64,000 nucleotides of DNA from Saprospiraceae bacterium (GCA_045106765.1 JBGCFD010000046.1:18729-82728), one strand, 5' to 3'. Counted from the first letter of the stretch, positions 10,694 through 55,115 are shown. Program-made: numbers and translations. The notes: generated from the letters alone by a model not told the origin.

Positions 10694-11647
10694 TTATTTA
10701 TTTAGGGAAAATGCCAAATTAATTTCATGCGAACTTCCTACTGCTGGTCCAAAAGTATTGTAAGAATAATCAAATCCATACCCTATTTTAAAAGTATTGT
10801 CCCAACCTAAGTTTTCACCTAAATTAAATCCAGTCTCCAAATGAAAAGTCCCTGCAGTAGAGAGTCCTGTTCCTAACCACATGTTGCTTGGAAACTGGTA
10901 TCGAATATTAAAATCAACTGATACTGGTACATTTGGTGCATATTTTACCCAAATAGAAGGCTCTAAATATCCATCATTATCGAAGTAGTGGTACAATCCA
11001 AGTAGTCCATAAAAATGTTGAATTCTTTTAGTAGAGAAATCTCCATTTTCATCTTTAAAATCCAAATTCAAACCAAACACCTGTGGAACAGAAATTCCTG
11101 TATAAAATAAATCGTCATCTAAAATTCCTGTTTCAATTGTTCTATAAAAATAAACGCCCAATCCTACATCAGGAAATATTTTTGATTGATCTTCCATACT
11201 CACAATGTCACCTGGATCTCTCACAAATAATTCAGAAGAATTCACTCGATATTGAACCACTCCAGCAGTCAAGCCAATCGACAATCCGCCATATTCTATA
11301 TCATCTGATATGATCCCTGCAATTCGACCATAAGCTCCAGTAAACCCAGTTGGTCCAGTTTGATCATTAATTAAATATCCTCCAAACATTAATCCTACTC
11401 CTCCAGCATCCATCACATATTCTCCTCGAATAGTTTGAGTCACCGGATGAGCATCAAATCCAACCCATTGAGTTCGGTAAGAAATACCAAAGGAAAGATT
11501 TTGTTCTGAAGTATGAAAATCACTATTAACCGCAGCAGGATTAAGGAGACCAACATTCTGGCGATATTGAGTAAATAGAGGGATTTGCTGTGCAGATAAT
11601 GCATGGCAGAAAAGAAACAGGGCTACTGTTAGGTATAACCGATTCAT
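10694..11647 (-). CDS. PorP/SprF family T9SS outer-membrane protein
   Basis: The N-terminus SAQQIPLFTQYRQNVGLLNPAAV is the family signature. It looks like a beta-barrel and lies immediately upstream of a type B CTD cargo gene on the same strand. Confidence 0.9.
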   Translation of the reverse strand: MNRLYLTVALFLFCHALSAQQIPLFTQYRQNVGLLNPAAVNSDFHTSEQNLSFGISYRTQWVGFDAHPVTQTIRGEYVMDAGGVGLMFGGYLINDQTGPTGFTGAYGRIAGIISDDIEYGGLSIGLTAGVVQYRVNSSELFVRDPGDIVSMEDQSKIFPDVGLGVYFYRTIETGILDDDLFYTGISVPQVFGLNLDFKDENGDFSTKRIQHFYGLLGLYHYFDNDGYLEPSIWVKYAPNVPVSVDFNIRYQFPSNMWLGTGLSTAGTFHLETGFNLGENLGWDNTFKIGYGFDYSYNTFGPAVGSSHEINLAFSLNK

Positions 11648-11950: not shown

Positions 11951-13243
11951 TTATTTTTTCACAAATGATTCTGTTTGAATTCCGTCCGCTGTCCTTAAAC
12001 TTAAAAAATAAGTTCCGTCTGAGAATTCACTAAAATCAATTTCGAGTAGTAATTCTTTTTCATTAATTTTTTTGGAAAAAACTGGTTGACCTAAAACATT
12101 CACGATAGAAATTTCAACATCTTCTGCATTCTGTAACAATGCTTTTACGTAAAAATTATCTTCGACTGGATTTGGAAAAACTTGAAATACTTCTAAACCT
12201 TCTGGAGCAGAAACTATACTCGTTGTAGTTTCTCCATTTACATATTCTCCTTCCAAAATATATAACTCATTATCATCTGGGTTTTCCCAAACAATTTGGC
12301 GAGGAGTAAACTGATCACTAAATTTTAATACTTCAGTCTGGGCAATAGGTGCATCAGCTAACGCCTTAAATTTTAAAGTCATCAAAGGACTTCCATCAAC
12401 ATAACCAAGAGAATCTAATGTTTGGTTATAAAATAAATGAGGCAAAAATCCATTTTCTACAAGATCTGAATTTGTTAAAAGATCTTCTAAAATATTATTC
12501 CCTTGAAAATCTATCACTTCCTCCAATTCCAATAAATTAGCATCCCATTCAAATGTCTCTTGAAATCCAATAATGTTGGTAAAATTTAAGGCAGAAAAAA
12601 TAAACTCAACATCGTCTCCTATTTGAAAATATTCATTTGAAATACTCAAAACTGGAGATGGTGCACTAGCTGGTGCAGGCATATAATCTGAACTTATTGC
12701 AGGGTCACCTTTTTTAATCGCAACAAAATCAAGTCCTGTCAAATTATCAGTAACATTGACATCAATCCCAATTGGAAGGGGAAAAACAAATGAATTATAA
12801 TTGGCATCAACAAATGTCCAAGTTGGTAAATTATTATCATCAATATGTAAGGCAAGCTTTGTCATCAAAGCTAAATCATAAGTTGTTACACCTACAGCTG
12901 AATTTAGAGGAGAACTAAGATCCGCTGCATATTTTTGATAAAAATTAAATGAATTTAAATTTAAAATATACCTTCTGGTTTCTATCAAATCCAGTATGGT
13001 TATATCATCAAACTTTTCATACATTCCACTTGGTAATATATTACAAACTGTGTTCAAATCAACATCAGTAAATTCAAAATTCCCGTCTGAATCAGAAGTG
13101 ACTGTTTCAATACAATCTACTTCAATAGCTGGAACAGGATTTTCATTGTGCCTTTTTAGTTTTCCAGAAATACTAAATTGAGCAGATAAAATTGTAGGAA
13201 ATAAAAACATTCCTATCATTAAAAAGAGGTGATTTTTTTTCAT
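11951..13243 (-). CDS. T9SS type A CTD cargo protein with a CarboxypepD_reg-like N-terminus, a degenerate dockerin-like segment and a cohesin-like module
   Basis: Signal peptide. The C-terminus FPNPVEDNFYV...GTYFLSLRTADGIQTESFVKK fits a Por_Secre_tail-type domain. It is a paralog of the next gene. Confidence 0.85.
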   Translation of the reverse strand: MKKNHLFLMIGMFLFPTILSAQFSISGKLKRHNENPVPAIEVDCIETVTSDSDGNFEFTDVDLNTVCNILPSGMYEKFDDITILDLIETRRYILNLNSFNFYQKYAADLSSPLNSAVGVTTYDLALMTKLALHIDDNNLPTWTFVDANYNSFVFPLPIGIDVNVTDNLTGLDFVAIKKGDPAISSDYMPAPASAPSPVLSISNEYFQIGDDVEFIFSALNFTNIIGFQETFEWDANLLELEEVIDFQGNNILEDLLTNSDLVENGFLPHLFYNQTLDSLGYVDGSPLMTLKFKALADAPIAQTEVLKFSDQFTPRQIVWENPDDNELYILEGEYVNGETTTSIVSAPEGLEVFQVFPNPVEDNFYVKALLQNAEDVEISIVNVLGQPVFSKKINEKELLLEIDFSEFSDGTYFLSLRTADGIQTESFVKK

Positions 13244-13278: not shown

Positions 13279-14577
13279 TTATTTCTTTACAAATGATTCT
13301 GTTTGAATTCCATCCGCTTTTTTTAAACTTAAAAAATAAGTTCCTGAGGGAAATTCACTAAATCCAATTTCGAGTAATATTTCCTTTTGATCAAAGTTTT
13401 TAGAAAAAACTGATTGACCTAAAACATTCACGATAGAAATCTCAACATCTTCTGCATCAAGTAACAATGCTTTTACATAAAATTTATCTTCGACTGGATT
13501 CGGAAAAATTTGAAAAGATTCCAACGTTTTTGGAGCATTGGCCATTCCAGTCGTACCTTCTCCATTTATGTATGTTGCATCTACAATAAACAATTCAAGG
13601 TCATCGGGATTTTGCCAAACAACTTGTTTTGCAGTTATTTCATCTGAAAAAAACAATACTTCAGTCATGCTAGGAACATCTGCCAAAGCTTTAAAATTCA
13701 AGGTCATCAATACTTCTCCATCCTGTATTTGAAGAAAATTCATTAAAGACAAAGTGGGAAGTAAGCCTTGAGATATTTCTGCATCATTTATGTTAACATT
13801 TAATCCTGATACACCTTCAACAGACTGAAATTCTAAAACATTAGTATCCCATTTAAAGGTTTGTTGACAACCAGAGATGTTGGAGAAATCTTCCACCGTT
13901 ACTTCAAACTGAACATCATCACCTACTTGAAATGATTCATTAATGATTGTAAAAATTGGAGAAGGAGCAGCCGGTGGTGCAGGCATATAATCTGAACTAA
14001 TCGCAGGATCTCCTCTTTTTATAGCAATAAAATCAACATCAGTAATTGTATCTGTTGCAGTCACATTAATGAAAGTTGGTGGAAAAGTCGTAAATGGAAA
14101 TGAAAAAATAAAATTAGCATACGCAAATATCCAGTTTTCTTGGATGGAAGTTTCATTTATCCGTAACGCTAATTGAAATATTTTGACCATATCAAGTGCA
14201 GTCACGGCAGCAGAATTATTTACATCACAAGCCAACAATTGATGACCAGAAATATTATTAGTTAATTGTAATATAAATTGCTGTAAGACAAGTGCATCCA
14301 AAACGGTCACCTCCTCATATTTATCAAAATTTCCACTTGCAAATACATCACACATGTAATTTAGAGTTATATCTGTAAATTCAAAGTTGCCGTTCACATC
14401 AGTCGTAACTGTTCCATCACAATTTACTTCAATATCTGACAACGGATCACCATTGTGTCTAGTAATTTGTCCTGAGATAGAAACAGTTTGAGAGGTTAGG
14501 ATAGTGGGAAAAAGGAATAATCCCACCACTAGGGTAAGGTAGATTTTTTTCATGATCATGGGTTTTATAGTTTTCAA
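13279..14577 (-). CDS. T9SS type A CTD cargo protein, tandem paralog of 11951-13243
   Basis: Same architecture. Dockerin-like segment ACDVNNSAAVTALDMVKIFQLAL, near-identical CTD and PAISSDYMPAP linker. The start may be the internal MKKIY. Confidence 0.85.
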   Translation of the reverse strand: MKTIKPMIMKKIYLTLVVGLFLFPTILTSQTVSISGQITRHNGDPLSDIEVNCDGTVTTDVNGNFEFTDITLNYMCDVFASGNFDKYEEVTVLDALVLQQFILQLTNNISGHQLLACDVNNSAAVTALDMVKIFQLALRINETSIQENWIFAYANFIFSFPFTTFPPTFINVTATDTITDVDFIAIKRGDPAISSDYMPAPPAAPSPIFTIINESFQVGDDVQFEVTVEDFSNISGCQQTFKWDTNVLEFQSVEGVSGLNVNINDAEISQGLLPTLSLMNFLQIQDGEVLMTLNFKALADVPSMTEVLFFSDEITAKQVVWQNPDDLELFIVDATYINGEGTTGMANAPKTLESFQIFPNPVEDKFYVKALLLDAEDVEISIVNVLGQSVFSKNFDQKEILLEIGFSEFPSGTYFLSLKKADGIQTESFVKK

Positions 14578-35541: not shown

Positions 35542-37281
35542 CTAGCGAATCAACGAAACATCACCTTTTAATTCCTCTACCCCATCTGTCGTTTCTATTC
35601 TTATCATATAAATCAACACATCAGTTGGATGTGGATTCCCATCAACCTCTCCATTCCAAGGTGTTTTTTCATCATGCACTAAATTTCCCCAACGATTAAA
35701 AATTTTAAAGTCGACAATTTCCACACTATTCCCTTCGATGACTGGTCCGAAAGTATCATTCAGTCCATCTCCATCTGGAGTAAAAACATTTGGCATTTGC
35801 CAGTCTCCACAAGCATCAATTACAATACTAGTCTCAGCAGTACAATCATTTTCATCAGATACAATAACTGAATATTCATCTCCATCTTCAATTGTAATAA
35901 CAGCACTCGTTTCTCCATTTGACCATTCATAACTTTCAAAATCTCCTGCATTTAGAAGTACAGGCAAATCCCCACAAAGATCAATTCCATGTGGTGTCGT
36001 TATCTCTGCGGCAATTGCCTCTGAACTATTTACCATAACTTGAAAAGCTCCTGAACATTGATTCGCGTCTTCAATGACTACGAAAAAACTCCCTGCAGCC
36101 ACATCTATAAATACATTTTCAACTTGAAAATTAACCCCATCTAAACTGTATTGAAATGGTGCTTGTCCAGCACCAGGAAAGACTTCGAGCATTCCATTTT
36201 CAAATCCGCAAGTCGTGTGATCAATCATCACTTCATCAATAACTGGATTTTGTGGAGCATCAATACTTACATTTACAATCGTTGCACAACCAACTGCATC
36301 TGTAACCGTCAAGGCATGATTTCCTTCTTCCAGATTCATTGCTTCCTCCGTCGTTTCTCCATTATCCCAAAGGTAAGAGTAGGGTTCAAATCCACCATTC
36401 ACCGCAACTGAAGCTGATCCTAGACTTCCATCACAACCTGTTGACGTTTGTGCAGCAATCACTCCAGAAATATCTGAAACATAAACCGTAACTGAACTCT
36501 CCTCTATCAAAATTGGAGAAAAAGAGATATCGTCCAATGCAAAATCATTGCCACCAACAGATACATTTTGATTGACTATACAAATCTCTACACTTGTATT
36601 ATTATCTGATTCCCACGTTTGAAAAAACTGCTCCCAAACACATGTTCCTGATGGAGCCGTAAAAATCGAACCTAACAAAGTTCCGTTAATTGAAAATTGT
36701 AATTCGGCAGGATTCCCTACTTCAACTGAAGTAATCCAAGTCGAAAATTGGTAAGTCGTATTTTCTTGAATCGCTATCGTTTGACACCAGATTTCTTGAT
36801 TCAACGTTGCTGAACCATTGACCACTAACATATTTCCAAAACCAGTAGTGTGATCATCGCAATTTGCAAAATTCGAATGTGCTAAATTGGGATTAGTAAC
36901 AACCGCATAAGTTCCTTCATCCGACAAGTCTCCCCATGTACCTCCACTCGTATTTGGACCATAAAGATATTCTGTAGTAAAACCAGAATTTCCAGCAGAA
37001 AAATCACCATTGGTAATAACTGAATTTCCTAAAATACTTCCCACAACTGTATAGGTTGTGGTCATCGGTGGAGTCACCGTTGGGTTTGCTGTACTTGGGC
37101 TAGTAATCCAAGTATTTGGAGTCCAAGTGTAAGTATCAAATATATCTCCCTCCGCTGCTAAAGCAACAGTTTCTCCTTGGCAGATAGTGTCTTGTGCTAC
37201 AGTTGCAGTTATTGAAAGTTGAGCAAAAATACTCGTAGATAGTACTAATAAAAGAAAAACTAGGAGGTTCTTTTTCATCAT
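35542..37281 (-). CDS. T9SS type B CTD protein with a CBM-like jelly-roll domain and SprB-type repeats
   Basis: Signal peptide. It contains ...GNDFALDDISF (a CBM-like end), GGFEPYSYLWDNGET (SprB repeat), and the C-terminus NVFTPDGDGLND...FNRWGNLV...GDVSLIR. Confidence 0.88.
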   Translation of the reverse strand: MMKKNLLVFLLLVLSTSIFAQLSITATVAQDTICQGETVALAAEGDIFDTYTWTPNTWITSPSTANPTVTPPMTTTYTVVGSILGNSVITNGDFSAGNSGFTTEYLYGPNTSGGTWGDLSDEGTYAVVTNPNLAHSNFANCDDHTTGFGNMLVVNGSATLNQEIWCQTIAIQENTTYQFSTWITSVEVGNPAELQFSINGTLLGSIFTAPSGTCVWEQFFQTWESDNNTSVEICIVNQNVSVGGNDFALDDISFSPILIEESSVTVYVSDISGVIAAQTSTGCDGSLGSASVAVNGGFEPYSYLWDNGETTEEAMNLEEGNHALTVTDAVGCATIVNVSIDAPQNPVIDEVMIDHTTCGFENGMLEVFPGAGQAPFQYSLDGVNFQVENVFIDVAAGSFFVVIEDANQCSGAFQVMVNSSEAIAAEITTPHGIDLCGDLPVLLNAGDFESYEWSNGETSAVITIEDGDEYSVIVSDENDCTAETSIVIDACGDWQMPNVFTPDGDGLNDTFGPVIEGNSVEIVDFKIFNRWGNLVHDEKTPWNGEVDGNPHPTDVLIYMIRIETTDGVEELKGDVSLIR

Positions 37282-39763: not shown

Positions 39764-41680
39764 ATGACTAACCTAAAATGTACTTCAAAAAAATCGATTA
39801 ATATTCTTTTCCTATTATTTTTATTATGCCTTGGAAATTCTGTTTTTGCACAAACACCCACCGCTCAAGATTGTCTCGGAGCTATCCCTATTTGTGCTCA
39901 AGCTTATACCGAAACCACCTCTCCTTCTGGCTCCGGAAATTATCCTAACGAAATAAATGGAACTTCTCAAGGTGGAATTTGCTGTATGGATAATGAGTTA
40001 AATTCTATCTGGTACACATTTACTGTTAATCAATCTGGTGACTTTGGATTTACCTTGACACCTAATAATTCGATTGATGATTACGACTGGGCCATGTTTG
40101 ATATTACCAATGGTAGCTGTGAAGATATTTTTAATGATATTTCGATGCAAGTAAGTTGTAATGCTGCTGGAGGAGGCACTTGCAATGGAAATACAGGAGC
40201 AAACGGAGGATCTACTTATAATAATCAAGGGGCAGGTTGTAATAGTATTAACCCTAGTCAGTTTGCAGGAAATAGTGCCGATAATGCCCTTGTCCCAGTT
40301 CAGCAAGGCAATACTTATGTATTGGTAATTTCCAATTGGTCAGGTTCAACCAATGGATACACGATTGATTTTGGGGTCTCTGGAAATATTGGAATTATCG
40401 ATATGATTGATCCTGAAGTTTCAGATATCACGCTCCCTGGCGATTGTGGAGGTGATGAAATGGAAGTTACCTTTTCGGAATATATTCAATGCGCTACCAT
40501 TAGTGGAAACAATTTTCAAATCTCAGGCCCAGGCGGTCCGTATACTGCTACTGTATCAGCTAATGCTTGTAACCAAGGTGGTGCTTACGATAATATTTTC
40601 ACAATTAATATTAATCCACCAATTACAGAAATTGGAAATTATTCCATCGCTCTGGTGACCAATGGAACAACAGATCTTTTAGATTTATGTGAAAATCCAT
40701 TAGTGATTGACACCTTTTATTTTTCAGTATTGAATAGTCCTTTGCCCAATATTAATATTGGAAACGATACTATTTTATGTAATGGAGAATCCGTCAACAT
40801 TGACGTTTCACTTCCCAATGCAGAATCATATTCTTGGTCTGATGGAACAGGTGGGCCGATTATTTCAATCACCGATCCTGGAACTTATACAGTTACGATC
40901 ACCAATATTTGTAATTCAGTAACGGATAATATTTTGGTCAATTTTGTTCCATTACAAACCGTGGATGTGAACCTGGGATCAGATACACTACTTTGTCCTG
41001 GAGAAATTTATGCGCTTGATGGAACGTGGATTGGAGGTGTTCAATATCTATGGCAAGATGGATCGACAGATCCAATTTATCAAGTTTCGGAAACAGGTTT
41101 TTATGAAGTTCAAATTCTTGGTGCCTGTGGAGAAACAGGTTTTGCGGCTGTCCAAATAGATTATGATGAGACAGAATTAAACTTGAATTTAGGACCTGAC
41201 AGTTTACTTTGTGAAGAGGATGGTTTTTATGTCATTGATGTATTCGATCCAAATGTAGAGGAATATATTTGGAGTGATGGCACAACAGGTTCTACTTTAC
41301 AAGTAACCGAAAATGGTATTTATGGCGTAACGATTTCTGACAATTGTAATGTATTGATAGATGAAGTCAATCTTGAATTTACCAATTGTACCCTTTGTGA
41401 AGTTTATGTTCCAAATGCATTTTCGCCAGACTTTAATGGTTACAATGATTATTTTTTGCCTTACTCCAATTGTTCATTACTTAATTATTCTATGAAAATT
41501 TTTAATCGTTGGGGCGCTCTAGTTTATACGTCGACCAATCCAGATGAAGGATGGGACGGCAGATTTAACAACAAAGATATTCCTGAAGGAGTCTATGTTT
41601 ACCTCCTTGAGTTTGAGGTAAATCAGCGAGGAGAAAATATTCCTAAAAGATTATCAGGTGACCTTACCGTTGTAAAATAA
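39764..41680 (+). CDS. T9SS type B CTD surface protein
   Basis: Signal peptide, a Cys-containing N-terminal domain (DCLGAIPIC...NSIWYTF...DDYDWAMF), four Ig-like LC.GE...Y.W.DGS modules, and the C-terminus PNAFSPDFNGYND...FNRWGALVY...GVYVYLL...GDLTVVK. Confidence 0.88.
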   Translation: MTNLKCTSKKSINILFLLFLLCLGNSVFAQTPTAQDCLGAIPICAQAYTETTSPSGSGNYPNEINGTSQGGICCMDNELNSIWYTFTVNQSGDFGFTLTPNNSIDDYDWAMFDITNGSCEDIFNDISMQVSCNAAGGGTCNGNTGANGGSTYNNQGAGCNSINPSQFAGNSADNALVPVQQGNTYVLVISNWSGSTNGYTIDFGVSGNIGIIDMIDPEVSDITLPGDCGGDEMEVTFSEYIQCATISGNNFQISGPGGPYTATVSANACNQGGAYDNIFTININPPITEIGNYSIALVTNGTTDLLDLCENPLVIDTFYFSVLNSPLPNINIGNDTILCNGESVNIDVSLPNAESYSWSDGTGGPIISITDPGTYTVTITNICNSVTDNILVNFVPLQTVDVNLGSDTLLCPGEIYALDGTWIGGVQYLWQDGSTDPIYQVSETGFYEVQILGACGETGFAAVQIDYDETELNLNLGPDSLLCEEDGFYVIDVFDPNVEEYIWSDGTTGSTLQVTENGIYGVTISDNCNVLIDEVNLEFTNCTLCEVYVPNAFSPDFNGYNDYFLPYSNCSLLNYSMKIFNRWGALVYTSTNPDEGWDGRFNNKDIPEGVYVYLLEFEVNQRGENIPKRLSGDLTVVK

Positions 41681-41682
41681 TA

Positions 41683-41722
41683 AAAACGTTGGACGTCAAA
41701 CATTTGACGTCCAACGTTTTTT
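41683..41722 (+). terminator. Perfect 18-bp-arm palindrome plus T-run
   Basis: aaaacgttggacgtcaaa-ca-tttgacgtccaacgtttt followed by tt. It ends only 11 nt before the TTG start of the next gene. Confidence 0.75.
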
Positions 41723-41733
41723 AAAAGTTCGTT

Positions 41734-43830
41734 TTGAAAAAAAAATTCCCTTTCTTACTTTCCATCATTTGGCTGATTCTTATTTTCTTCATCAATCCGA
41801 TTGGTGAATTTCCATTGAACGATGATTGGTCTTACACTCATAATGTCAAAGCCTTGGCACTTGATCATCAAATTACTTTTGATGATTGGGGAGCAATGAC
41901 TTTGATTGCGCACACTATCTGGGGAACTTTATTTTGTAAAATATTTGGATTCTCTTTTACCGCACTCCGAGTATCAACTTTGATCATAAGTTGGATAGGT
42001 TTGTTGGCAACTTTTTTCTTTTTTAGAGAAGGAGGTTTAGAGAAAAAAAAAGCATTTTGGGCGACCCTTCTAATTGCTTTAAATCCACTTTATTTAGTAC
42101 TTTCCTTTAGTTATATGACAGACATTCCATTTATGTGTTTTGTTATTTTGTCCGCATTATTTTTTTTAAAATTCATTCATAAAAAACCGAATTATAACCT
42201 CTATTGGGCAACAGTATTTTCCGTCATTGCTACTTTGATTCGACAACCTGGAATTCTACTCCCGCTTTCTTTCTTTTTTATTTATATTTTAAAAAATAAA
42301 ACTTCGTTAAAATCTGTATTTCAATCAGTTATACCTCTTTTTTCAACAACTACGATTTTAATTCTATTCACCACATGGCGAAAAAACAACTACGGATTGT
42401 CTAATAGTTTTGGAACTACAGATCATTTGATTGAAAATATTTTCAATGGAAAAATTACGCAAAATTTAAGCGAGCAAGCTCATGGAATTTTTATTTATTG
42501 GGGGATATTTTTATTGCCGTTTCTGTTTATTTCATTTTCTTATTTTTGGAAAAAAGAAGACTGGAAAACTCGGCTTCTCGTGTTTGTAATTACGCTGTTA
42601 TGCATCTTTCCCTTTTTGGAAAAATGGAATTATCCTTTGCATGGAAACATCATTTTTAATTTAGGAATAGGACCACATATTCTGGCAGAATACCCTGAAT
42701 CCTATTCTCCCTATTTTTCAGTATCGGAGTGGAACAATTTAAAATTAATCGGTTTCATTGGCGGCGTAAATATATTGTTATGGCTTTGGTTTCGATTTAT
42801 CCAAACCTTATTTTTTTTGATAAAAAGAGAAACAGAAAAAGTAAATTGGGCAACTGCATTTTCTCTCACCACCGCTGGGATTTACTTTTTCTTTTTGATG
42901 ACAAATGATTATTTTTTTGATCGATATTATCTGATGCCGCTCCCCTTTTTGGTTTTAATAATTTTTCCAAAAAATCATACCGCTAATATCTTTATATTAA
43001 AAAAATGGACAACAATTCCTGCCGCAGCAATATTTTCTATGATTGCTTTTTTTTCCATCACAGCAACCAAAGACAATCTATCCTGGAATCGAACTCGTTG
43101 GAAAGCAACTGAATTTGCTATCAACAAATTGAACATTCCGATTAAAAATATTAATGGTGGTTTTGAATTTAATGGTTGGAATCGACGAGGTGTTCCACTT
43201 CCAACAAATTGGGGCAATCAAAATTGGTGGCAAAATAAAGAGGGACAATTCACCCTTTCTAGCGGACCGCTTTGTGGATACGAAACAATCAAAACATTTC
43301 CTAATTCCAAAATCCTTCCACCTCAAAAGGATACTATTTTTATTTTAAAAAAATCAAAAATTGCCTCTTCTGAAATTATTCGATGCGATGCAGAAACACT
43401 AACTTTTGATTCTACCAATTTTCAAAGCAACTTAGAAAATTATGTTTTTGGAAATATTGAAACTCGATCCTCTGAACAAAAACATACAGGCAATTACAGT
43501 ATTCTAACCAATGAAAAAACACCATTTGGTTTTACCATAAAATTAGGCAACGTCAGCCCCTGCGAGAGAATTTGGTTCCAAGTATGGAGATTCCCAACCA
43601 AATCAACCGCAGCAATTGTTGGAGCAGCATCCAATCCAAAAGATTTTTATCAGTTAGGAAAAAACAAAATTTTGCAGACCAAAGAAAATGGTTGGAGTCA
43701 AATAACGACCGAATTTGTCGTCCCAAAAAACTTTCGAGATTCCAATTTGGTATTTTATATTTTTAACCCAACAAAAAATAATACTTGGTTTGATGACCTA
43801 GAAATCACTAGATTGAAAATAGAGAATTGA
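41734..43830 (+). CDS. GT-C-like (ArnT/PMT_2-like) polytopic membrane glycosyltransferase with a C-terminal CBM-like domain, paralog 1
   Basis: TTG start. About 13 TM helices, FPLNDDWSY in the first loop, an FGFSFTALR..TL segment, and a ~250-aa soluble C-terminus ending WFDDLEITRLK. Confidence 0.75.
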   Translation: MKKKFPFLLSIIWLILIFFINPIGEFPLNDDWSYTHNVKALALDHQITFDDWGAMTLIAHTIWGTLFCKIFGFSFTALRVSTLIISWIGLLATFFFFREGGLEKKKAFWATLLIALNPLYLVLSFSYMTDIPFMCFVILSALFFLKFIHKKPNYNLYWATVFSVIATLIRQPGILLPLSFFFIYILKNKTSLKSVFQSVIPLFSTTTILILFTTWRKNNYGLSNSFGTTDHLIENIFNGKITQNLSEQAHGIFIYWGIFLLPFLFISFSYFWKKEDWKTRLLVFVITLLCIFPFLEKWNYPLHGNIIFNLGIGPHILAEYPESYSPYFSVSEWNNLKLIGFIGGVNILLWLWFRFIQTLFFLIKRETEKVNWATAFSLTTAGIYFFFLMTNDYFFDRYYLMPLPFLVLIIFPKNHTANIFILKKWTTIPAAAIFSMIAFFSITATKDNLSWNRTRWKATEFAINKLNIPIKNINGGFEFNGWNRRGVPLPTNWGNQNWWQNKEGQFTLSSGPLCGYETIKTFPNSKILPPQKDTIFILKKSKIASSEIIRCDAETLTFDSTNFQSNLENYVFGNIETRSSEQKHTGNYSILTNEKTPFGFTIKLGNVSPCERIWFQVWRFPTKSTAAIVGAASNPKDFYQLGKNKILQTKENGWSQITTEFVVPKNFRDSNLVFYIFNPTKNNTWFDDLEITRLKIEN

Positions 43831-43923
43831 TTTTCATTTTTTCGCCATCTACAATAATTTTAGCATCTTGCAGTTCCAATTTTAAAACGAAAAAAAATTT
43901 AAAACAAGCAACGAAAACACATC

Positions 43924-45999
43924 TTGAAAAAATACTTAACCTTTCCATTTCTCCTTTCCATCATTTGGCTAATCTGCATCATTTTAGTCAACCCATTAGG
44001 CGATTTTCCGCTCAATGATGATTGGTCATATGGTCGAAATGCAAAAGCACTCGCCTTGGAAAATGAAATATTTTTTGATGATTGGGGTGCTATGACTTTA
44101 ATCGTACACACGATGTGGGGAGCATTCTTTTGTAAAATGTTTGGCTTCTCATTTACGGTACTTCGCTTCTCCACTTTAATTTTAGGATGGGCTGGTTTGT
44201 TGGTGACCAATTTATTTTTTCAAGAAGGAGGCATGAGTAAAAAACAGGCTGGGTGGGCAACACTTTTACTATGTTTTAATCCTTATTTTTTTATGAACTC
44301 ATTCACTTACATGACAGAAGTTCCATTCCTTTTTTTCTTTATCTCTTCTGCCTATTTCGCCCTCAAAAGTATTAATGACAAAAGTGATTATAACATTATA
44401 TTTGCATCTATATTTTCCATTCTTGCCGTACTCATCAGGCAACATGCAGTATTAGTTCCACTAGCTTTCTTTTTTATATTTATAATAAAAAAGAAAGCTT
44501 CATTAAAGACTATTGGTCAATCAGTTACACCACTATTTTTAACTTTTGGCGCATTAACAATCTTTACGAACTGGAGAAATTCGCAATATGGTTTATCTCA
44601 AAACTTTGGAAGTACCAATACTCTTTACGAAAGCATCTTCAATGGAAGATTAGAGTTTGCTTTACAATACAAAGCTCAATATTTTTTCGTCTATTGGGGG
44701 CTTTTTTTACTCCCTATTTTAATTCTACTTGTCCCTTATTTTTGGAAAAAAATACCTAAAGCTGGGATGCTTTTTTCAGTAATTCTGACATTAATTATTT
44801 GCTATCCTTACTTCTCTAGCCATCGAGACTTTTTGGGAAACACCTTTCATAACTTAGGAGTTGGATTCATGGCACTTCCTACAAATTCAGAAATTTCTCC
44901 TCCAAAAATTGGTACAAATGATTGGGAAAATCTTTTTTTAATATCACTCTTTGCAGGTACCTTATTGTTCAAATGGATTTTGATTCGCACCGCTCAAGTT
45001 TTTATTTTTATCAAAAATAAAAAATCGGAACAAGTCAATTGGAGTACTCCTTTTGCATTAATTATTTGCTTTGCTTATTTCTGCTTTTTGATGTTGAACA
45101 ATCATTATATTGATCGATATAATTTATTGGCTGTTCCTTTCTTGATTCTACTAATTGCACCTTATCATCAACCAGTCCATCTTCCAAAACCATTCAAAGT
45201 CTTAGCTTCAATTGCTTTTTTTATTACTGTATTTTTTTCAATTGGAGCGACTCATGATTACTTATCTTGGAATAGAGCCAGATGGAAAGCCAGTCATTTT
45301 GCACATAATAATTACGAAATCAAGCCTGGATTAATCAATGGAGGATTTGAATATAAATTTACTTACGACAATAAATATATTCGTCCTAGTGGCTGGGAAG
45401 ATATCGAAACTTGGAATACTACACCTGAACAATTTTTAATCTCTTTTTCGGAAGAATGTAAATATGAAACCAAAAATACTTTTCCTTATCAACGATACTT
45501 ACCACCTAGAACTGACTCGATTTTCTTATTAAAAAAAGAAACGATTACTCCTTTCGATACGATTATTTGTAATATGGATAGCCTTTCGAAGGATGGTAAA
45601 TTTTTCCAAACCAATCAAAATAACGTCCTTCTTGGAAATGTAGACACGAGAACTTCAGAAAGATCTCACTCTGGAAAATACTCTGTAGCAATTAATAGTG
45701 GGCAATCCTATGCACTTACATTTGACCTAAAAGATATTGAACCTTGCGAAAAAATTTCAGTTACTTTTCACAGATTTCCTGCTCGTCATCCAGCTGGAGC
45801 TGTAATGGTTCACGATCAATATTACTATATAGAGAATCTCAATTATATGACTGCCTTGGACAAACCGAACTGGGGAAGAGGAATTCAAGAATTTAAAATT
45901 CCTGAAAATCTTGATAAATCAACTTTGACTTTTTTCCTTTTTAATCCTGCAAGTGAGATGGTTTGGTTCGACGATTTGACTATCATACGCATGAAGTAA
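43924..45999 (+). CDS. GT-C-like membrane glycosyltransferase with a C-terminal CBM-like domain, paralog 2
   Basis: TTG start and the same architecture. The N-terminal ~90 aa are about 85 percent identical to paralog 3. Confidence 0.75.
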   Translation: MKKYLTFPFLLSIIWLICIILVNPLGDFPLNDDWSYGRNAKALALENEIFFDDWGAMTLIVHTMWGAFFCKMFGFSFTVLRFSTLILGWAGLLVTNLFFQEGGMSKKQAGWATLLLCFNPYFFMNSFTYMTEVPFLFFFISSAYFALKSINDKSDYNIIFASIFSILAVLIRQHAVLVPLAFFFIFIIKKKASLKTIGQSVTPLFLTFGALTIFTNWRNSQYGLSQNFGSTNTLYESIFNGRLEFALQYKAQYFFVYWGLFLLPILILLVPYFWKKIPKAGMLFSVILTLIICYPYFSSHRDFLGNTFHNLGVGFMALPTNSEISPPKIGTNDWENLFLISLFAGTLLFKWILIRTAQVFIFIKNKKSEQVNWSTPFALIICFAYFCFLMLNNHYIDRYNLLAVPFLILLIAPYHQPVHLPKPFKVLASIAFFITVFFSIGATHDYLSWNRARWKASHFAHNNYEIKPGLINGGFEYKFTYDNKYIRPSGWEDIETWNTTPEQFLISFSEECKYETKNTFPYQRYLPPRTDSIFLLKKETITPFDTIICNMDSLSKDGKFFQTNQNNVLLGNVDTRTSERSHSGKYSVAINSGQSYALTFDLKDIEPCEKISVTFHRFPARHPAGAVMVHDQYYYIENLNYMTALDKPNWGRGIQEFKIPENLDKSTLTFFLFNPASEMVWFDDLTIIRMK

Positions 46000-46025
46000 A
46001 AATTATTTTCAACCAATAAATTTAA

Positions 46026-48107
46026 ATGTATAATCTGCTCAAAAATCATTCATTCCTTCTTTCCATCATCTGGCTAATTTGCATTATTTTAGTCAACCCA
46101 ATTGGCGATTTTCCACTCAATGATGATTGGTCATATGCACGAAATGCCCAAGCACTTGCCTTGGAAAATAAAATCTATTTTGATGATTGGGGAGCGATGA
46201 CTTTAATTGCACACACGATGTGGGGAGCATTCTTTTGTAAAATATTTGGCTTCTCATTTACGGTACTTCGCTTCTCCACTTTAGTTTTAGGATGGATCGG
46301 ATTATTGGTTACTTTCCGTTTTTTTCAAGAAGGAGGAATGAAGAAAAATCATGCATTTTGGGCAACGATTTTATTTGCATTTAATCCTTTTTATTTTGCT
46401 AATTCATTTAGTTACATGACTGAAGTTCCATTCATGTGTTTTTTGATGACAGCAGCTTATTTTTCTCTCAAAGCGATCAATGGCAAAGGTCAAAAAAACA
46501 TTTTTTTAGCAGCACTATTTTCGATCATAGCTACGATGATTCGACAACCTGGAGTTTTAGTTCCCATTGCTTTTTCTATCACTTATGTTACCAAAAATAA
46601 ACTTTCGTTAAAGACTCTAATTCAAGGAATTACGCCTACTTTTTTAACTTTAGGGAGTTTAATTTTATTCACTATTTGGCGAAATGAGAATTATGGACTT
46701 TCTAAAAACTTTGGAAAAACTAGCCAACTCCTTGATAATATCTCTAATGGAAATTTAGCTGATGCAATTACTACTAAATCAGTTGGCTTTTTTATTTTAT
46801 GGGGACTTTTTTTATTGCCAATTTTGATTGTTTTAGTAAGTAATTTTTGGAAAAAAATTCCGACGACTGGGAAAATAATTTCAGTTGTAATTGCATTGTT
46901 ATTGAGCTATCCATTTTATCACTCTCTCGCAGATTCTTACTTAGGAAATACTTTTTTAAACTTGGGAATTGGCCCACTTGTTTTGCCCTTTGAAGGAGAA
47001 TTTCCCATCAGTCAAATGCATAAAAATGATTGGAAAAATTTCACTTTAATTGGTTTCATTAGTGGTATCGTTTTACTTCAATGGATTTTAATTCGCACCA
47101 CTCAACTTTTATTTTTTATAAAAAACAAAACATCAGTATCAGTCAATTGGAATACCTTTTTTGGTTTGGCAACTGCCTTTGGCTATTTCGCTTTTTTGAT
47201 GTTAAATAATTTTTATTTTGATCGATATAGTTTAGTGGCAATTCCATTTTTGATCTTAATGCTCTTTCCTCAAAATGCAAATTTTTCTATTCCTCGACTC
47301 CTAAAAATAGTTGGACATATCGCACTTGCAACAATTATTTTATTTTCTATCGGAGCAACTCATGATTATCTTTCTTGGAATCGAGCACGATGGGAAGCAG
47401 CCAATTATTCACATCAAGTACTTCAATTAGAACCTGCTGAAATCAATGGTGGATTGGAATACAAAAAGTGGTTTGGAATTTTTTTTAATCGTCCACCTGG
47501 CTACCAAGGTTTGGAAGATTGGGAAAGTCTTCGGGAGCATTATATTATTTCACATTCGGAGCAATGCCTTTTTACAACCCTCAAAAGTTTTCCCTATACT
47601 CGTTATTTTCCACCAAAGCGAGATGCTATTTATTTATTAGAAAAAGAAAATTTCTCCCATACAGATACGATCACTTGCAATGCAGAATTGCTTTCCGAAA
47701 ATGATCAACGCTTCCTCACTAATAAAAATGAGATCCAATTAATGAATGTCGAAACTAGAGTTTCTGACAAAGCCCACTCAGGCAAATATTCTATTTTATT
47801 AGATTCAGAACATCCCTATGGATTTACATTTACCATGGAAAATTTACAACCCTGCGAAAAAATTTTAGTGATCTGTTGGAAGTTTTCTCCGACCAATGCC
47901 GTCAAAGCAGTTATGGCAATGGAAGGCGATTTCTATCTATCAAATCCTGATTTGATTCTAGACAAAGATGAAAATGGATGGACAAAACAAGCACAAGAAT
48001 TTACTATTCCAAAAGATTATAAAGGAACTAAAGCTACTTTCTTCTTTTTCAATCCTACTGCTGAAAAAGTTTATTTTGATGATCTGATGATTGTGAGGAT
48101 TAGGTGA
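46026..48107 (+). CDS. GT-C-like membrane glycosyltransferase with a C-terminal CBM-like domain, paralog 3
   Basis: ATG start and the same architecture. The C-terminus reads ...VYFDDLMIVRIR. Confidence 0.75.
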   Translation: MYNLLKNHSFLLSIIWLICIILVNPIGDFPLNDDWSYARNAQALALENKIYFDDWGAMTLIAHTMWGAFFCKIFGFSFTVLRFSTLVLGWIGLLVTFRFFQEGGMKKNHAFWATILFAFNPFYFANSFSYMTEVPFMCFLMTAAYFSLKAINGKGQKNIFLAALFSIIATMIRQPGVLVPIAFSITYVTKNKLSLKTLIQGITPTFLTLGSLILFTIWRNENYGLSKNFGKTSQLLDNISNGNLADAITTKSVGFFILWGLFLLPILIVLVSNFWKKIPTTGKIISVVIALLLSYPFYHSLADSYLGNTFLNLGIGPLVLPFEGEFPISQMHKNDWKNFTLIGFISGIVLLQWILIRTTQLLFFIKNKTSVSVNWNTFFGLATAFGYFAFLMLNNFYFDRYSLVAIPFLILMLFPQNANFSIPRLLKIVGHIALATIILFSIGATHDYLSWNRARWEAANYSHQVLQLEPAEINGGLEYKKWFGIFFNRPPGYQGLEDWESLREHYIISHSEQCLFTTLKSFPYTRYFPPKRDAIYLLEKENFSHTDTITCNAELLSENDQRFLTNKNEIQLMNVETRVSDKAHSGKYSILLDSEHPYGFTFTMENLQPCEKILVICWKFSPTNAVKAVMAMEGDFYLSNPDLILDKDENGWTKQAQEFTIPKDYKGTKATFFFFNPTAEKVYFDDLMIVRIR

Positions 48108-48139: not shown

Positions 48140-48523
48140 TTAATTCGGTAATGCATCTTTAAGTTCAGTCATAAATGCATCTGTTTTTTCACCCAAAGGA
48201 ATACTGATATAATTGAATTGGTCATAAAATACTTTGGCCATTTTTTTCCCATAAAATGTTTTTCCGTCTTCGATTTTAGCGATATTTTTTAACCAAATTT
48301 TTTGATGTGTTTTTCCAAAAGTAGAAACAGCTAAGTGATCTTTTTTCACTTCATAGGTATTTTTAAAAAATAAAACTAATGGCAAAAGTGGTGCAGTCAA
48401 CATGGCTGCAATCTTCAAATTGGCGCTCAACCATTCGAAGATTCCAAAACCTAAAATCACCATTAGAATGATGATAGCCATTTTATAATTGAAGGAAGTG
48501 TATTTCAATTTTTTTATTTTCAT
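48140..48523 (-). CDS. Two-TM membrane protein with a possible bacterial PH-like domain
   Basis: Two N-terminal TM helices, then a ~70-aa soluble domain (EVKKDHLAVSTFGKTHQKIWLKNIAKIE). The family assignment is tentative. Confidence 0.55.
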   Translation of the reverse strand: MKIKKLKYTSFNYKMAIIILMVILGFGIFEWLSANLKIAAMLTAPLLPLVLFFKNTYEVKKDHLAVSTFGKTHQKIWLKNIAKIEDGKTFYGKKMAKVFYDQFNYISIPLGEKTDAFMTELKDALPN

Positions 48524-48591: not shown

Positions 48592-48625
48592 ACACCCATT
48601 TAAAACATAAGTTTTAAATGGGTGT
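48592..48625 (-). terminator. Terminator downstream of the OmpA/SPOR gene
   Basis: Perfect 15-bp stem acacccatttaaaac / gttttaaatgggtgt with loop ataa. Confidence 0.7.
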
Positions 48626-48648: not shown

Positions 48649-49383
48649 TTAGTTTACATCAAGTTCACTAGGCACATAAATCGGTTCCACTAAACTCATC
48701 GAATTTCCATTTTTATCTAAAATTTCCAAAACTACTCTTCGATTAAATTGTCTTCCCTCTTCAGTATCTGCTCCATTTTCCAATTGATTTTTTGCAATTG
48801 GTTGGTGTTCTCCATAAGTTTCGATTTTGATTCGACTGGCAGGAATACCTCTACTGATCAAATATTTTTTTGCAGACTTTGCTCGATTTTTTGACAAACG
48901 ATCATTATAAGAATCATTTCCTTTAGCATCAGTATGTGCTCTCAAACTAGCAATCAAAGATGGATTTTCTTTTAAGTTATTCACCATCAAACTTAACTGC
49001 TTTCTTGATTCAGCTCTCAAATTATATTTATCAAAATCAAAAAAGATAGATTGCAAACTAGAAACCAATTTTCGAGGAGGAGGAGTTTTATAACAAGTAC
49101 AAGTTGCATTAAAAAAGCTTTCATGCATCACGGTTGTGTTATACCCCAAAGCTTCCAATTTTTTACTTTCTGTCTCTGCACTAGCTTCGTCATATTTTCC
49201 CACAAAATATCTATGGAAATCATATTTGTCTTTGCTATAAAAGATTTCACCATTAATATTTTGAAATTGTGCTGCGGAAACAGTCTTGTTGTAAACAGCA
49301 ATTTGAACGAACCAATCATTCTCCGCCGCTTTCATGGATAGAGAACTCAAAATAACGCAAATTGCTAAAAGTGTGTTTTTCAT
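48649..49383 (-). CDS. OmpA-family peptidoglycan-binding protein with an N-terminal SPOR-like domain
   Basis: Signal peptide, WFVQIAVYNK...YFVGKY (SPOR-like), and an OmpA_C-like segment (FFDFDKYNL...HTDAKGNDSYNDRLSKNRA...NRRVVLEI). Confidence 0.85.
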   Translation of the reverse strand: MKNTLLAICVILSSLSMKAAENDWFVQIAVYNKTVSAAQFQNINGEIFYSKDKYDFHRYFVGKYDEASAETESKKLEALGYNTTVMHESFFNATCTCYKTPPPRKLVSSLQSIFFDFDKYNLRAESRKQLSLMVNNLKENPSLIASLRAHTDAKGNDSYNDRLSKNRAKSAKKYLISRGIPASRIKIETYGEHQPIAKNQLENGADTEEGRQFNRRVVLEILDKNGNSMSLVEPIYVPSELDVN

Positions 49384-53176: not shown

Positions 53177-53884
53177 ATGGACGAACAGAAACGATTAGAA
53201 TTATTGAACAAAGCCAAAGATTTTTTTCTTAAAGAAATCGTGACTTCTCACGTCAGTAACGGTTTAAAAAAAGCAGGTTCACTTCACAATTATAATGTCA
53301 ATCCCTTTCTTTTTAAATATTTAGCGAACTTCTTGCGAGGCAATGGAAATCCTGAAAGCATGGCGGAAGCATTGATTTTGCCAAGAGTTTTAGGTTCTTC
53401 GATCACGACAACTTTCGGAATGAAAATCCAAAAATTGATTAGTGAATTATTCGAAGGATTTGGTTCAACGACTCATGGAATCGATATCGAATTTATCGAC
53501 GCTATCGACGGTCGAAAAAAATATTGTCAAATCAAATCTGGTCCAAACACCATCAATCATGATGATGTGCAAACGATCTTTGGACACTTCGATGGCATCA
53601 TTAATTTAGCTCGGACGAATAATCTTAACGTTGGTTTTCAAGATTTGATGGTTGGAATTATTTATGGTGAAAAACAAGATTTGTCGTCACACTATAAAAG
53701 TATCGACCAACGATTTCCAGTTTTTATTGGAAAAGATTTTTGGCATCATTTGACTGGCAAAGAAGATTTTTATTATGATTTGATTGATGCGTTTGGAGAA
53801 GTTGCATTGGAAGTAGATGGCGGTGCGGCGCTGAGAATCACAATTCAAAAATTAGCGAGAGAGATTGAGGTGAAATTCAAATGA
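53177..53884 (+). CDS. Putative type II restriction endonuclease (PD-(D/E)xK). An Eco47II-like family is a recollection, not verified.
   Basis: Candidate catalytic motif GIDIEFIDAIDGRKKYCQIKSG (D...E...Q-I-K). It is convergent with, and 13 nt from, a C5 DNA methyltransferase gene. Confidence 0.6.
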   Translation: MDEQKRLELLNKAKDFFLKEIVTSHVSNGLKKAGSLHNYNVNPFLFKYLANFLRGNGNPESMAEALILPRVLGSSITTTFGMKIQKLISELFEGFGSTTHGIDIEFIDAIDGRKKYCQIKSGPNTINHDDVQTIFGHFDGIINLARTNNLNVGFQDLMVGIIYGEKQDLSSHYKSIDQRFPVFIGKDFWHHLTGKEDFYYDLIDAFGEVALEVDGGAALRITIQKLAREIEVKFK

Positions 53885-53897
53885 TTATAATCATTTC

Positions 53898-55115
53898 TCA
53901 TTTTACCTCATTCAAAAATTTGACAATCGCATATCCCACTTCCTTTCCTAAATTCACCGGCACCGCATTTCCAATTTGTTTATACTGTTGCGTCACCGAA
54001 CCTGCAAATTTCCAATCATCAGGAAAAGTTTGAATTCGAGCATATTCTCGCACCGTAAACGGGCGAGTTTCATCAGGATGGCATCGTTCCGTTTGTTTTT
54101 GAGCGGGACTACAAGTCAAAGTCAAGCTAGGTTCATCCCAACTAATTCTTCGAGCCATTCCAGTTTTTCCTCCACCGAGGTAAAAACTTTTTTGCATATA
54201 TTCTTTTTGAATGTCAATAGGCAAGTCTCGCCAATATCCACCTGGAGGAACTAAATCTAACACTACTTTTTTGTGTTCAGGATATTTTGCACCAGGAGAT
54301 TTAGGAACTTTTTTGGGGAAAAGTTCGCCTTTTTTTAATGCATCTTTTAGATTATAAATTTTAGGATAAGGCTTCGGATATTCGAAATCAATATCAATAT
54401 CTTTTCGAATACCGACAAGAATTAATCGCTCTCTTTTTTGCGGTACATTATAATGTATGGCTTTGAGAACATGATGTTCCATCACTCGATAACCCAACTC
54501 ATCCAAAACAGATTTCATTCCTTTCAGCGTTCGTCCGCTGTCGTGATTAACCAGTCCCTTTACATTTTCGCCAATACAAATCTTAGGTTGAACTTCTGAA
54601 ACTGCTCTGGCAAATTCATAAAACAACGTTCCTCTTGCATCTTTAAAACCCAAAGATTTACCAGCATAACTAAACGCTTGGCAAGGAAATCCACCGGTGA
54701 CAACATCCACTTTTCCTTTGTACTTTTTAAAAGAAATATCTCTGACATCTCCTTCTATCACATTCCAATTTGGGCGATTATTTCGCAATGTCTCTGCAGC
54801 CCAATGATCAATTTCATTTAAGGCTTCGCACTTCAATCCTGCTTTTTCTAAGCCTAAAGCTAATCCTCCTGCGCCTGCAAAAAGTTCTAAAACTTTATAC
54901 TCTTTTCTAGGTTTTACAAAATTGCCTTTACCATCTTCATCGAATAGACTACTCAATTCTGGGAACATTTTTAATTGCTCCTTTTTATACATTCGATAGT
55001 TGCTGATCGGTTCTCGAACAGCAACTAATTTTCCACTCCTATCCCATCGCCGCAAAGTTTCTTTGCTTTTACCTAATAATTCAGCGACTTCTGAAATTGA
55101 ATAATAATCCTTCAT
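53898..55115 (-). CDS. DNA (cytosine-5) methyltransferase with an N-terminal MerR/excisionase-type HTH
   Basis: Motif I FAGAGG, IV GFPCQAFS, VI ENV, VIII QKRERL and X GNAVPV. The N-terminus YSISEVAELLGKSKETLRRWDRSGKL is HTH-like. Confidence 0.95.
   Translation of the reverse strand: MKDYYSISEVAELLGKSKETLRRWDRSGKLVAVREPISNYRMYKKEQLKMFPELSSLFDEDGKGNFVKPRKEYKVLELFAGAGGLALGLEKAGLKCEALNEIDHWAAETLRNNRPNWNVIEGDVRDISFKKYKGKVDVVTGGFPCQAFSYAGKSLGFKDARGTLFYEFARAVSEVQPKICIGENVKGLVNHDSGRTLKGMKSVLDELGYRVMEHHVLKAIHYNVPQKRERLILVGIRKDIDIDFEYPKPYPKIYNLKDALKKGELFPKKVPKSPGAKYPEHKKVVLDLVPPGGYWRDLPIDIQKEYMQKSFYLGGGKTGMARRISWDEPSLTLTCSPAQKQTERCHPDETRPFTVREYARIQTFPDDWKFAGSVTQQYKQIGNAVPVNLGKEVGYAIVKFLNEVK

Follow-up and report, generated by a model that had tools for sequence, protein, structure and literature searches.

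Three adjacent genes at positions 41,734–48,107 of a 64-kb window from a Saprospiraceae metagenome-assembled genome (MAG), the window being the whole stretch of 64,000 nucleotides analyzed, raise the question of what kind of enzyme they encode and on which acceptor it would act. We propose, with moderate confidence, that the three products, here called GT1, GT2 and GT3, are periplasmic glycosyltransferases of the GT-C fold that depend on polyprenyl-phosphate sugars, carry an acceptor-binding tail resembling a carbohydrate-binding module (CBM), and decorate a cell-envelope polysaccharide. Residue numbers refer to GT3 unless stated, and labels of the form L0xx denote loci of relatives. The three genes are as follows (aa, amino acids).

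41734..43830, + strand: GT1, 698 aa, TTG start, NCBI MFK8006058.1; GT-C-fold (PMT_2) protein with a C-terminal CBM-like domain
43924..45999, + strand: GT2, 691 aa, TTG start, NCBI MFK8006059.1; paralog
46026..48107, + strand: GT3, 693 aa, ATG start, NCBI MFK8006060.1; paralog chosen for structure modeling

The open reading frames (ORFs) are co-directional, full-length and uninterrupted, and their products match MFK8006058.1–MFK8006060.1, from a 123-kb contig of a Saprospiraceae MAG, residue for residue. Aligned end to end, the proteins show pairwise identities of 45–53%, far above chance (53% between GT2 and GT3). An earlier, sequence-only reading had placed three consecutive ~690-aa paralogs exactly here and had assigned them three common motifs, all of which are present in each protein: FPLNDDWSY after the first transmembrane (TM) helix, the segment FGFSFT(A/V)LR(V/F)STL, and a C-terminal (W/Y)FDDLxIxR ending (WFDDLEITR, WFDDLTIIR and YFDDLMIVR). 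Because the intergenic gaps are short (93 bp between GT1 and GT2, 26 bp between GT2 and GT3) and contain no terminator-like site, the three genes probably share one transcript. NCBI names all three products "ArnT family glycosyltransferase". Their GT-C nature is already part of the public annotation and is not new; the "ArnT family" label probably claims more about the acceptor than is established.

The proposed active site centers on a short acidic motif that occurs in all three paralogs.

41818..41826, + strand: GT1 N29-D30-D31, putative catalytic acidic motif, opening the first periplasmic loop
44014..44022, + strand: GT2 N31-D32-D33, the same motif
46119..46127, + strand: GT3 N32-D33-D34, between TM1 (8–23) and the juxtamembrane helix 34–47

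The expectation that this motif would be conserved is borne out. Among 120 homologues listed by a word-index search, reaching down to 29% identity, N32, D33, D34, R82, R173, Q174 and R400 are invariant (120/120). A second count, 91/91 for NDD in the fetched loci, was dropped as evidence; it is not independent, because the scan pattern used for those loci itself contained FPLNDD.

The relationship to GT-C enzymes is visible in both domain profiles and fold. Pfam PMT_2 (PF13231) covers residues ~65–215 with 47.2 bits in GT1 (E = 3.7e-12), 34.7 bits in GT3 (2.5e-8) and 23.0 bits in GT2 (1e-4), so that GT1 and GT3 lie above the gathering threshold of 26.1 bits and GT2 just below it. GT3 alone matches PF02366 (PMT), and its 16.8 bits stay below the cut-off of 22.7. 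The NCBIfam models found at E ≤ 1 were LA3751_2_3_fam (the LA_3751/LA_3752 putative glycosyltransferase family; 17–34 bits against a cut-off of 200) and Agl23, both far below threshold. A phmmer search of GT1 against PDB sequences gave no match, and a 47-sequence profile run against PDB sequences retrieved no GT-C enzyme, only non-significant CBM61 and CBM4 chains. Because these PDB sequence searches found none, the tie to solved GT-C enzymes is visible only through PMT_2 and the fold.

The fold was examined with an AlphaFold model of GT3 built on the 47-sequence alignment (pLDDT 88, pTM 0.85). In a Foldseek search of the PDB, the best matches of this model were EmbA/EmbB (7bvc, 1e-6), then ArnT (5f15, 6e-6; TM score 0.41 relative to the target), with EmbC, STT3, PglB, Pmt4, Pmt1-Pmt2, ALG12 and DPY19 further down. 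All 20 matches at E ≤ 1e-3 were GT-C enzymes, with whole-chain TM scores of just 0.2–0.5. The modeled layout of TM1 (8–23), N32-D33-D34, two short helices (34–47 and 61–74) and TM2 (78–102) matches the GT-C_A arrangement. AlphaFold secondary structure combined with hydropathy gives ~13 TM segments, the last at ~424–446, and the topology predicted for GT3 has a cytoplasmic N-terminus and a periplasmic C-terminus, with Lys and Arg clustered in the short loops assigned to the cytoplasm. On the basis of the model, we assign GT1–GT3 to the GT-C fold and, within it, to class GT-C_A. The PMT_2 matches and the fold matches thus agree with the GT-C relationship that the sequence-only reading had suggested, and the number of TM helices is consistent with its estimate of ~13.

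Since ArnT is the second-best fold match, since PMT_2 covers ArnT-type enzymes, and since NCBI has chosen the ArnT name, one may ask whether the three proteins modify lipid A or the core of lipopolysaccharide (LPS), for example by adding aminoarabinose, galactosamine (GalN) or galacturonic acid (GalA) to a lipid A phosphate or to core sugars. ArnT (GT83) does share with them the GT-C_A fold and the PMT_2/PMT clan, and it uses an undecaprenyl-phosphate-monosaccharide donor at the periplasmic face. However, no ArnT or other equivalog NCBIfam model was matched even at E ≤ 1, identity to ArnT is ~10%, and no arn-type donor genes or arn operon context occur within the 64-kb window. The acceptor of ArnT is lipid A, and the 5f15 chain (541 residues) is too short to hold an additional module of ~150 aa, and it is not obvious that a lipid acceptor would call for one. 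Divergence among the periplasmic domains of three paralogs suits varied glycan acceptors better. We therefore regard an ArnT-like role as distinctly unlikely.

Beyond the last TM segment, each protein continues into a soluble tail, which had been described as a single C-terminal domain of ~250 aa. The soluble tail stands, but it comprises two modules rather than one: an α/β subdomain (~446–545) and a β-sandwich of ~150 aa.

47361..47660, + strand: GT3 periplasmic α/β subdomain, residues ~446–545
43369..43827, + strand: GT1 C-terminal β-sandwich (CBM-like), residues ~546–698; CBM sub-profile 188 bits
45553..45996, + strand: GT2 C-terminal β-sandwich (CBM-like), residues ~544–691; CBM sub-profile 177 bits
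47661..48104, + strand: GT3 C-terminal β-sandwich, residues 546–693; fold resembling CBM16, CBM22 and CBM61

Relatives that have no CBM (lengths ~540–560 aa) match only residues ~10–545; they come from Cyanobacteria, Acidobacteriota, Verrucomicrobiota, Planctomycetota, deltaproteobacteria and candidate phyla. Because their match also extends through ~545, the α/β subdomain can be counted as part of the family core. The final ~150 aa were seen only in relatives from Bacteroidota (Saprospiraceae, Lewinellaceae, Prolixibacteraceae, Flavilitoribacter and Draconibacterium). Two variants of this architecture were also observed in the family. A Bacteroidia MAG carries three tandem copies, all of them CBM-less (L072, 1850–6840), and a Saprospiraceae family member of ~875 aa has two CBM-like modules (L030, 9941–12568; CBM profile 272 bits).

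Modeled alone, the β-sandwich reached a pLDDT of 90.9 and gave fold matches to CBM16 (2zey, 7e-6, TM score 0.51), CBM22 (4xuo), a porphyran CBM (8xmz) and CBM61 (2xom), in agreement with the jelly-roll, CBM-like tail proposed earlier; it also matched the CBM-like receptor-binding domains of binary toxins. Pfam CBM_4_9 appeared below threshold in 4 of 25 members (best E 0.0012), and the profile matches to PDB chains were weak and non-significant (CBM61, E 0.2; CBM4, E 0.55–0.84). The term "CBM-like" is accordingly used here at the level of the predicted fold, and carbohydrate binding is what that fold would suggest.

Sequence divergence is unevenly distributed along the three paralogs. Their identity is 68–78% over residues 1–130, 46–53% over 131–300, 36–50% over 301–445, 30–45% over 446–545, and 33–41% in the β-sandwich. 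The earlier description of a conserved membrane core joined to diverged CBMs therefore holds for residues 1–130 but not for the remaining core, where identity drops to 36–50% at 301–445. Judged from the alignment, it is the N-terminal catalytic module alone that stands out as conserved, not the whole membrane core. Such a gradient would fit one shared donor chemistry with diverged acceptor-facing parts, as in the earlier suggestion of a single donor and three acceptors, although it is no proof of it.

The history of the locus is consistent with paralogs that have long been separate. The family is very large, with 3,651 representatives of 50%-identity clusters at E ≤ 1e-30 in many phyla. Among syntenic relatives, L001 carries orthologs of GT1 (84.5%) and GT3 (87%), L081–83, a widespread population seen in 49 contigs, carries only a GT3 ortholog (78%), and the sole copy in L086 is a GT2 ortholog (80%). 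Three tandem copies, of 696, 705 and 707 aa, are found in L088, a more distant relative. Because each paralog has its own orthologs in other genomes (78–87% identity) and gene content varies between relatives, the triplication is old, with copies differentially lost, and GT1–GT3 are best described as three old paralogs that have been differentially retained. Presence and absence of paralogs at one locus suggests variable surface-glycan modification, of which it is typical.

These comparisons also bear on the idea that at least one copy is decaying or non-catalytic, leaving only one functional enzyme. With 23.0 bits, GT2 falls short of the Pfam threshold of 26.1 bits, and relatives manage with one or two copies. 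Nevertheless, all three proteins are full-length and retain the family-invariant NDD, R82, R173-Q174, R400, D447, E478, W652 and D685, and the existence of a separate ortholog for each, at 78–87% identity, indicates purifying selection. Decay of a copy is thus highly improbable.

How do these proteins compare with characterized GT-C systems? The first loop of the Emb enzymes contains an acidic motif of the DD type; these enzymes also bind AcpM and have further periplasmic CBM-type domains. EmbA/EmbB/EmbC (GT53) and AftD resemble GT1–GT3 in their GT-C fold, in supplying the best Foldseek matches, and in C-terminal CBMs that bind the acceptor glycan; embCAB, moreover, consists of three adjacent paralogous genes. 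The C-terminal CBM of EmbC binds arabinan (PMC3044687). In contrast, the Emb chains in the fold search are 1,035–1,078 residues long, against ~690 aa here, and belong to another phylum and another envelope. GT1–GT3 gave no Pfam arabinosyltransferase match and no PDB sequence match, so that the similarity to Emb/Aft is one of fold only. The parallel with Emb drawn by the sequence-only reading is a fair one at the level of architecture.

By published architecture, a closer analogue would be the GT136 enzyme ORF12 of Citrobacter youngae O1 (Kelly et al. 2024). It has 652 aa, with a GT-C domain at 1–502 and a C-terminal CBM at 503–652; the CBM binds unmodified O-polysaccharide, residues D31, E34, H106 and R349 are essential, and the protein was reported to lack similarity to existing glycosyltransferase families (PMC11127046). 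Compared by that description, both are single-polypeptide Gram-negative GT-C proteins of similar length (652 versus ~693 aa) in which the membrane domain comes first and a β-rich CBM of ~150 aa comes last. Both also have essential or conserved acidic residues just after TM1 (D31/E34 in ORF12, D33/D34 here) and, toward the end of the membrane domain, an Arg-Tyr pair (R349/Y350 and R400/Y401, respectively). The two differ in that the O-antigen locus of ORF12 includes a polyprenyl-phosphoribose synthase and a MATE flippase, neither of which is present in this window, in that ORF12 is a single gene rather than a tandem triplet, and in that GT1–GT3 match Pfam PMT_2. A tblastn search of GT3 against phage sequences gave no match.

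The three-component Gtr systems offer a functional parallel. In these, a periplasmic GT-C enzyme decorates a finished glycan from a polyprenyl-phosphate sugar, and the GT-C content varies between strains; some relatives of GT1–GT3 likewise have an adjoining small gene of the GT2 family resembling a polyprenyl-phosphate-sugar synthase. Unlike Gtr systems, GT1–GT3 have no adjoining GtrA or GtrB homologues and no prophage context, and they have an added C-terminal CBM-like module. The eukaryotic and actinobacterial PMT enzymes (GT39) share the Pfam clan, the GT-C_A fold, the acidic pair in loop 1 and the presence of a lectin-like accessory domain. However, that domain is a loop-inserted β-trefoil MIR rather than a C-terminal jelly roll, and MIR and PMT_4TMC are both absent from GT1–GT3. 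Overall, the three proteins have the GT-C_A fold and the PMT_2 domain, and they lack the features that define ArnT, PMT proper, Emb/Aft or a Gtr-type system.

We propose that the active site of GT1–GT3 faces the periplasm and centers on the invariant N-D-D that immediately follows TM1, with an Asp of this motif (D33 or D34) as the putative catalytic base, as in other GT-C enzymes. R82, R173-Q174 and D399-R400-Y401, located at the membrane boundary, may bind the phosphate and sugar of a polyprenyl-phosphate-monosaccharide donor. These assignments rest on likeness to ArnT and to GT136 ORF12. The jelly roll, which resembles CBM4/9/16/22, would bind the glycan acceptor and hold it near the active site, a role we suggest because of the precedents of EmbC, AftD and GT136 ORF12. 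The overall task would be the post-polymerization decoration of an envelope polysaccharide (LPS O-chain, capsule or exopolysaccharide), with the three paralogs differing in the position modified or in the glycan recognized while adding an identical or similar sugar. Variable decoration of a surface polysaccharide fits, because the paralog content varies among close relatives.

Several observations weigh against polysaccharide decoration by such enzymes. The similarity to ArnT, PMT and Emb amounts to ~10% identity and escaped hidden Markov model searches of PDB sequences. The CBM assignment is one of fold (TM score ~0.5, rmsd 5–7 Å), with no Pfam match above threshold. No polyprenyl-phosphate sugar synthase, GtrA-, MATE- or SMR-type flippase, or polysaccharide pathway gene lies within the 64-kb window, and literature searches found no characterized member of the family, Bacteroidota included. 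Finally, the genomic context says little about the acceptor, because the neighborhoods are mostly unconserved in the 86 loci compared by all-against-all clustering. No universal neighbor emerged across these loci, only clade-specific synteny, and the scattered neighbors included GT2-family, PMT_2, WbqC, MFS and beta-lactamase-like genes.

Some relatives do have suggestive neighbors. In L085/L015 and L065, which are distant relatives, a ~240-aa GT2-family gene directly adjoins the GT-C gene; the best NCBIfam models for its product are AglJ, dolichyl-phosphate hexose transferase, PpgS and ArnC, none of which reaches its curated cut-off. Other family members are flanked by WbqC-like, further PMT_2 or GT2-family genes. 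The most informative context found for the family is L085 (9239–13770, Prolixibacteraceae MAG). Here, a 245-aa GT2-family gene resembling polyprenyl-phosphate-sugar synthases precedes, at 25 bp, a CBM-bearing homologue, which is followed on the opposite strand by a 518-aa PMT_2 protein, with more GT2-family genes nearby.

The immediate surroundings of GT1–GT3 in the window raise a different possibility for the acceptor. The sequence-only reading had pointed out that the genes directly follow one encoding a type IX secretion system (T9SS) surface protein, and this gene is indeed found 53 bp upstream, although a terminator-like hairpin fills the gap.

39764..41680, + strand: T9SS type B (CHU_C / Bac_Flav_CTERM) surface protein, 638 aa, 53 bp before GT1
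41683..41721, no strand assigned: hairpin between the T9SS type B gene and GT1, a GC-rich perfect palindrome with a 17–18 bp stem flanked by A5 and T6
48140..48523, − strand: predicted membrane protein of 127 aa, convergent with GT3; weak match to a bacterial PH domain

Could the three proteins then be protein O-glycosyltransferases, similar to PMT or TMTC, that modify Ser/Thr of secreted or T9SS proteins, the adjacent type B surface protein among them, from a polyprenyl-phosphate donor, with the β-sandwich in the lectin-like role of MIR? All three match PMT_2, GT3 has a weak PMT match, and Pmt4 and Pmt1/2 are among the fold matches. A CHU_C gene lies upstream of the glycosyltransferase gene or genes in all syntenic relatives, with a gap of only 4 bp in L088, and T9SS cargo is glycosylated in the periplasm of Cytophaga hutchinsonii (PMC11611037, PMC11858162). 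Nevertheless, the hairpin at 41683–41721 is strong (folding free energy −26.4 kcal/mol, z = −6.4, with 0/200 shuffles folding as well) and looks like a bidirectional intrinsic terminator, and the T9SS gene is probably on a separate transcript from GT1. Between the CHU_C protein of the window and that of L088, similarity is confined to the sorting domain and last repeat (33% identity over 139 aa), and beyond the sorting domain the two are not orthologous. The adjacency is, moreover, restricted to one clade, and it is weak evidence where T9SS cargo genes are frequent, at least four genes with a T9SS sorting domain being present in the window. Neither MIR nor PMT_4TMC was matched at E ≤ 1 in Pfam, and the additional domain folds like CBMs that bind polysaccharides.

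Because of the hairpin, the non-orthologous CHU_C neighbors and the abundance of T9SS cargo genes, the link to T9SS is weak. The upstream gene was downgraded as a functional partner, and the earlier suggestion of T9SS glycoproteins as acceptors finds little support. We consider protein O-glycosylation unlikely. The more specific proposal of a periplasmic system dedicated to O-glycosylating T9SS type B surface proteins, in which a jelly-roll lectin replaces MIR, cargo is split among the paralogs and the upstream adhesin-like protein is the first client, is even harder to credit.

We return to the decoration of an envelope polysaccharide as the preferred role. The combination of a GT-C domain and a C-terminal CBM has precedents in Emb, AftD and GT136. 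What is added here is an unannotated CBM-like module restricted to Bacteroidota, a periplasmic tail of two modules, a set of residues invariant across the family, and an old triplication that has been differentially retained. The CBM-tailed subfamily of Bacteroidota adds a further phylum to a design so far described from mycobacteria (Emb/AftD) and enterobacteria (GT136), and it belongs to a very large GT-C family that is defined by the invariant FPLNDD motif and for which no characterized member was found. Saprospiraceae are abundant in activated sludge and aquatic habitats. The variable paralog content of close relatives suggests strain-level variation of surface glycans in this group, which could affect recognition by phages and grazers as well as floc adhesion. 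The value of these results lies in a refined annotation and a reasonable experimental target; they introduce no new principle.

Other features of the window deserve a brief description. A homologue of the 127-aa membrane protein follows the glycosyltransferase gene or genes in every syntenic relative examined (L001, L081–83, L086 and L088), and this neighbor cluster is present in 9 loci. Between the 127-aa gene and an OmpA-family gene (48649–49383, − strand) lies an AT-rich palindromic hairpin (48592–48625; 15–16 bp stem, T-runs on both strands). The OmpA-family gene also occurs in L001 and L088 and is absent from L081–83 and L086. Farther along, at 53177–55115, two ORFs, one of 235 aa and the other of 405 aa with a helix-turn-helix at its N-terminus, are likely to form a type II restriction-modification pair; Pfam RE_EcoO109I and DNA_methylase/MerR are found in their L086 counterparts. 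Since L086 has the pair and the otherwise syntenic L081–83 lack it, it looks like an insertion.

The remaining observations concern T9SS-related genes. A second CHU_C (type B) protein, at 35542–37281 (− strand), contains an SprB repeat and weakly matches CBM_4_9 (E 0.037); the CBM sub-profile of the GT-C proteins gave no match to it at E ≤ 1e-5. Two adjacent T9SS type A (Por_Secre_tail) proteins, at 11951–13243 and 13279–14577 (both − strand), contain cohesin domains, and one of them also has a type I dockerin, a combination unusual for Bacteroidota surface proteins. A 1,761-aa ORF (5286–10571, − strand) adjoins a PorP/SprF-family gene (10694–11647, − strand); a large type B T9SS cargo protein beside a PorP-like anchor is the usual pairing.

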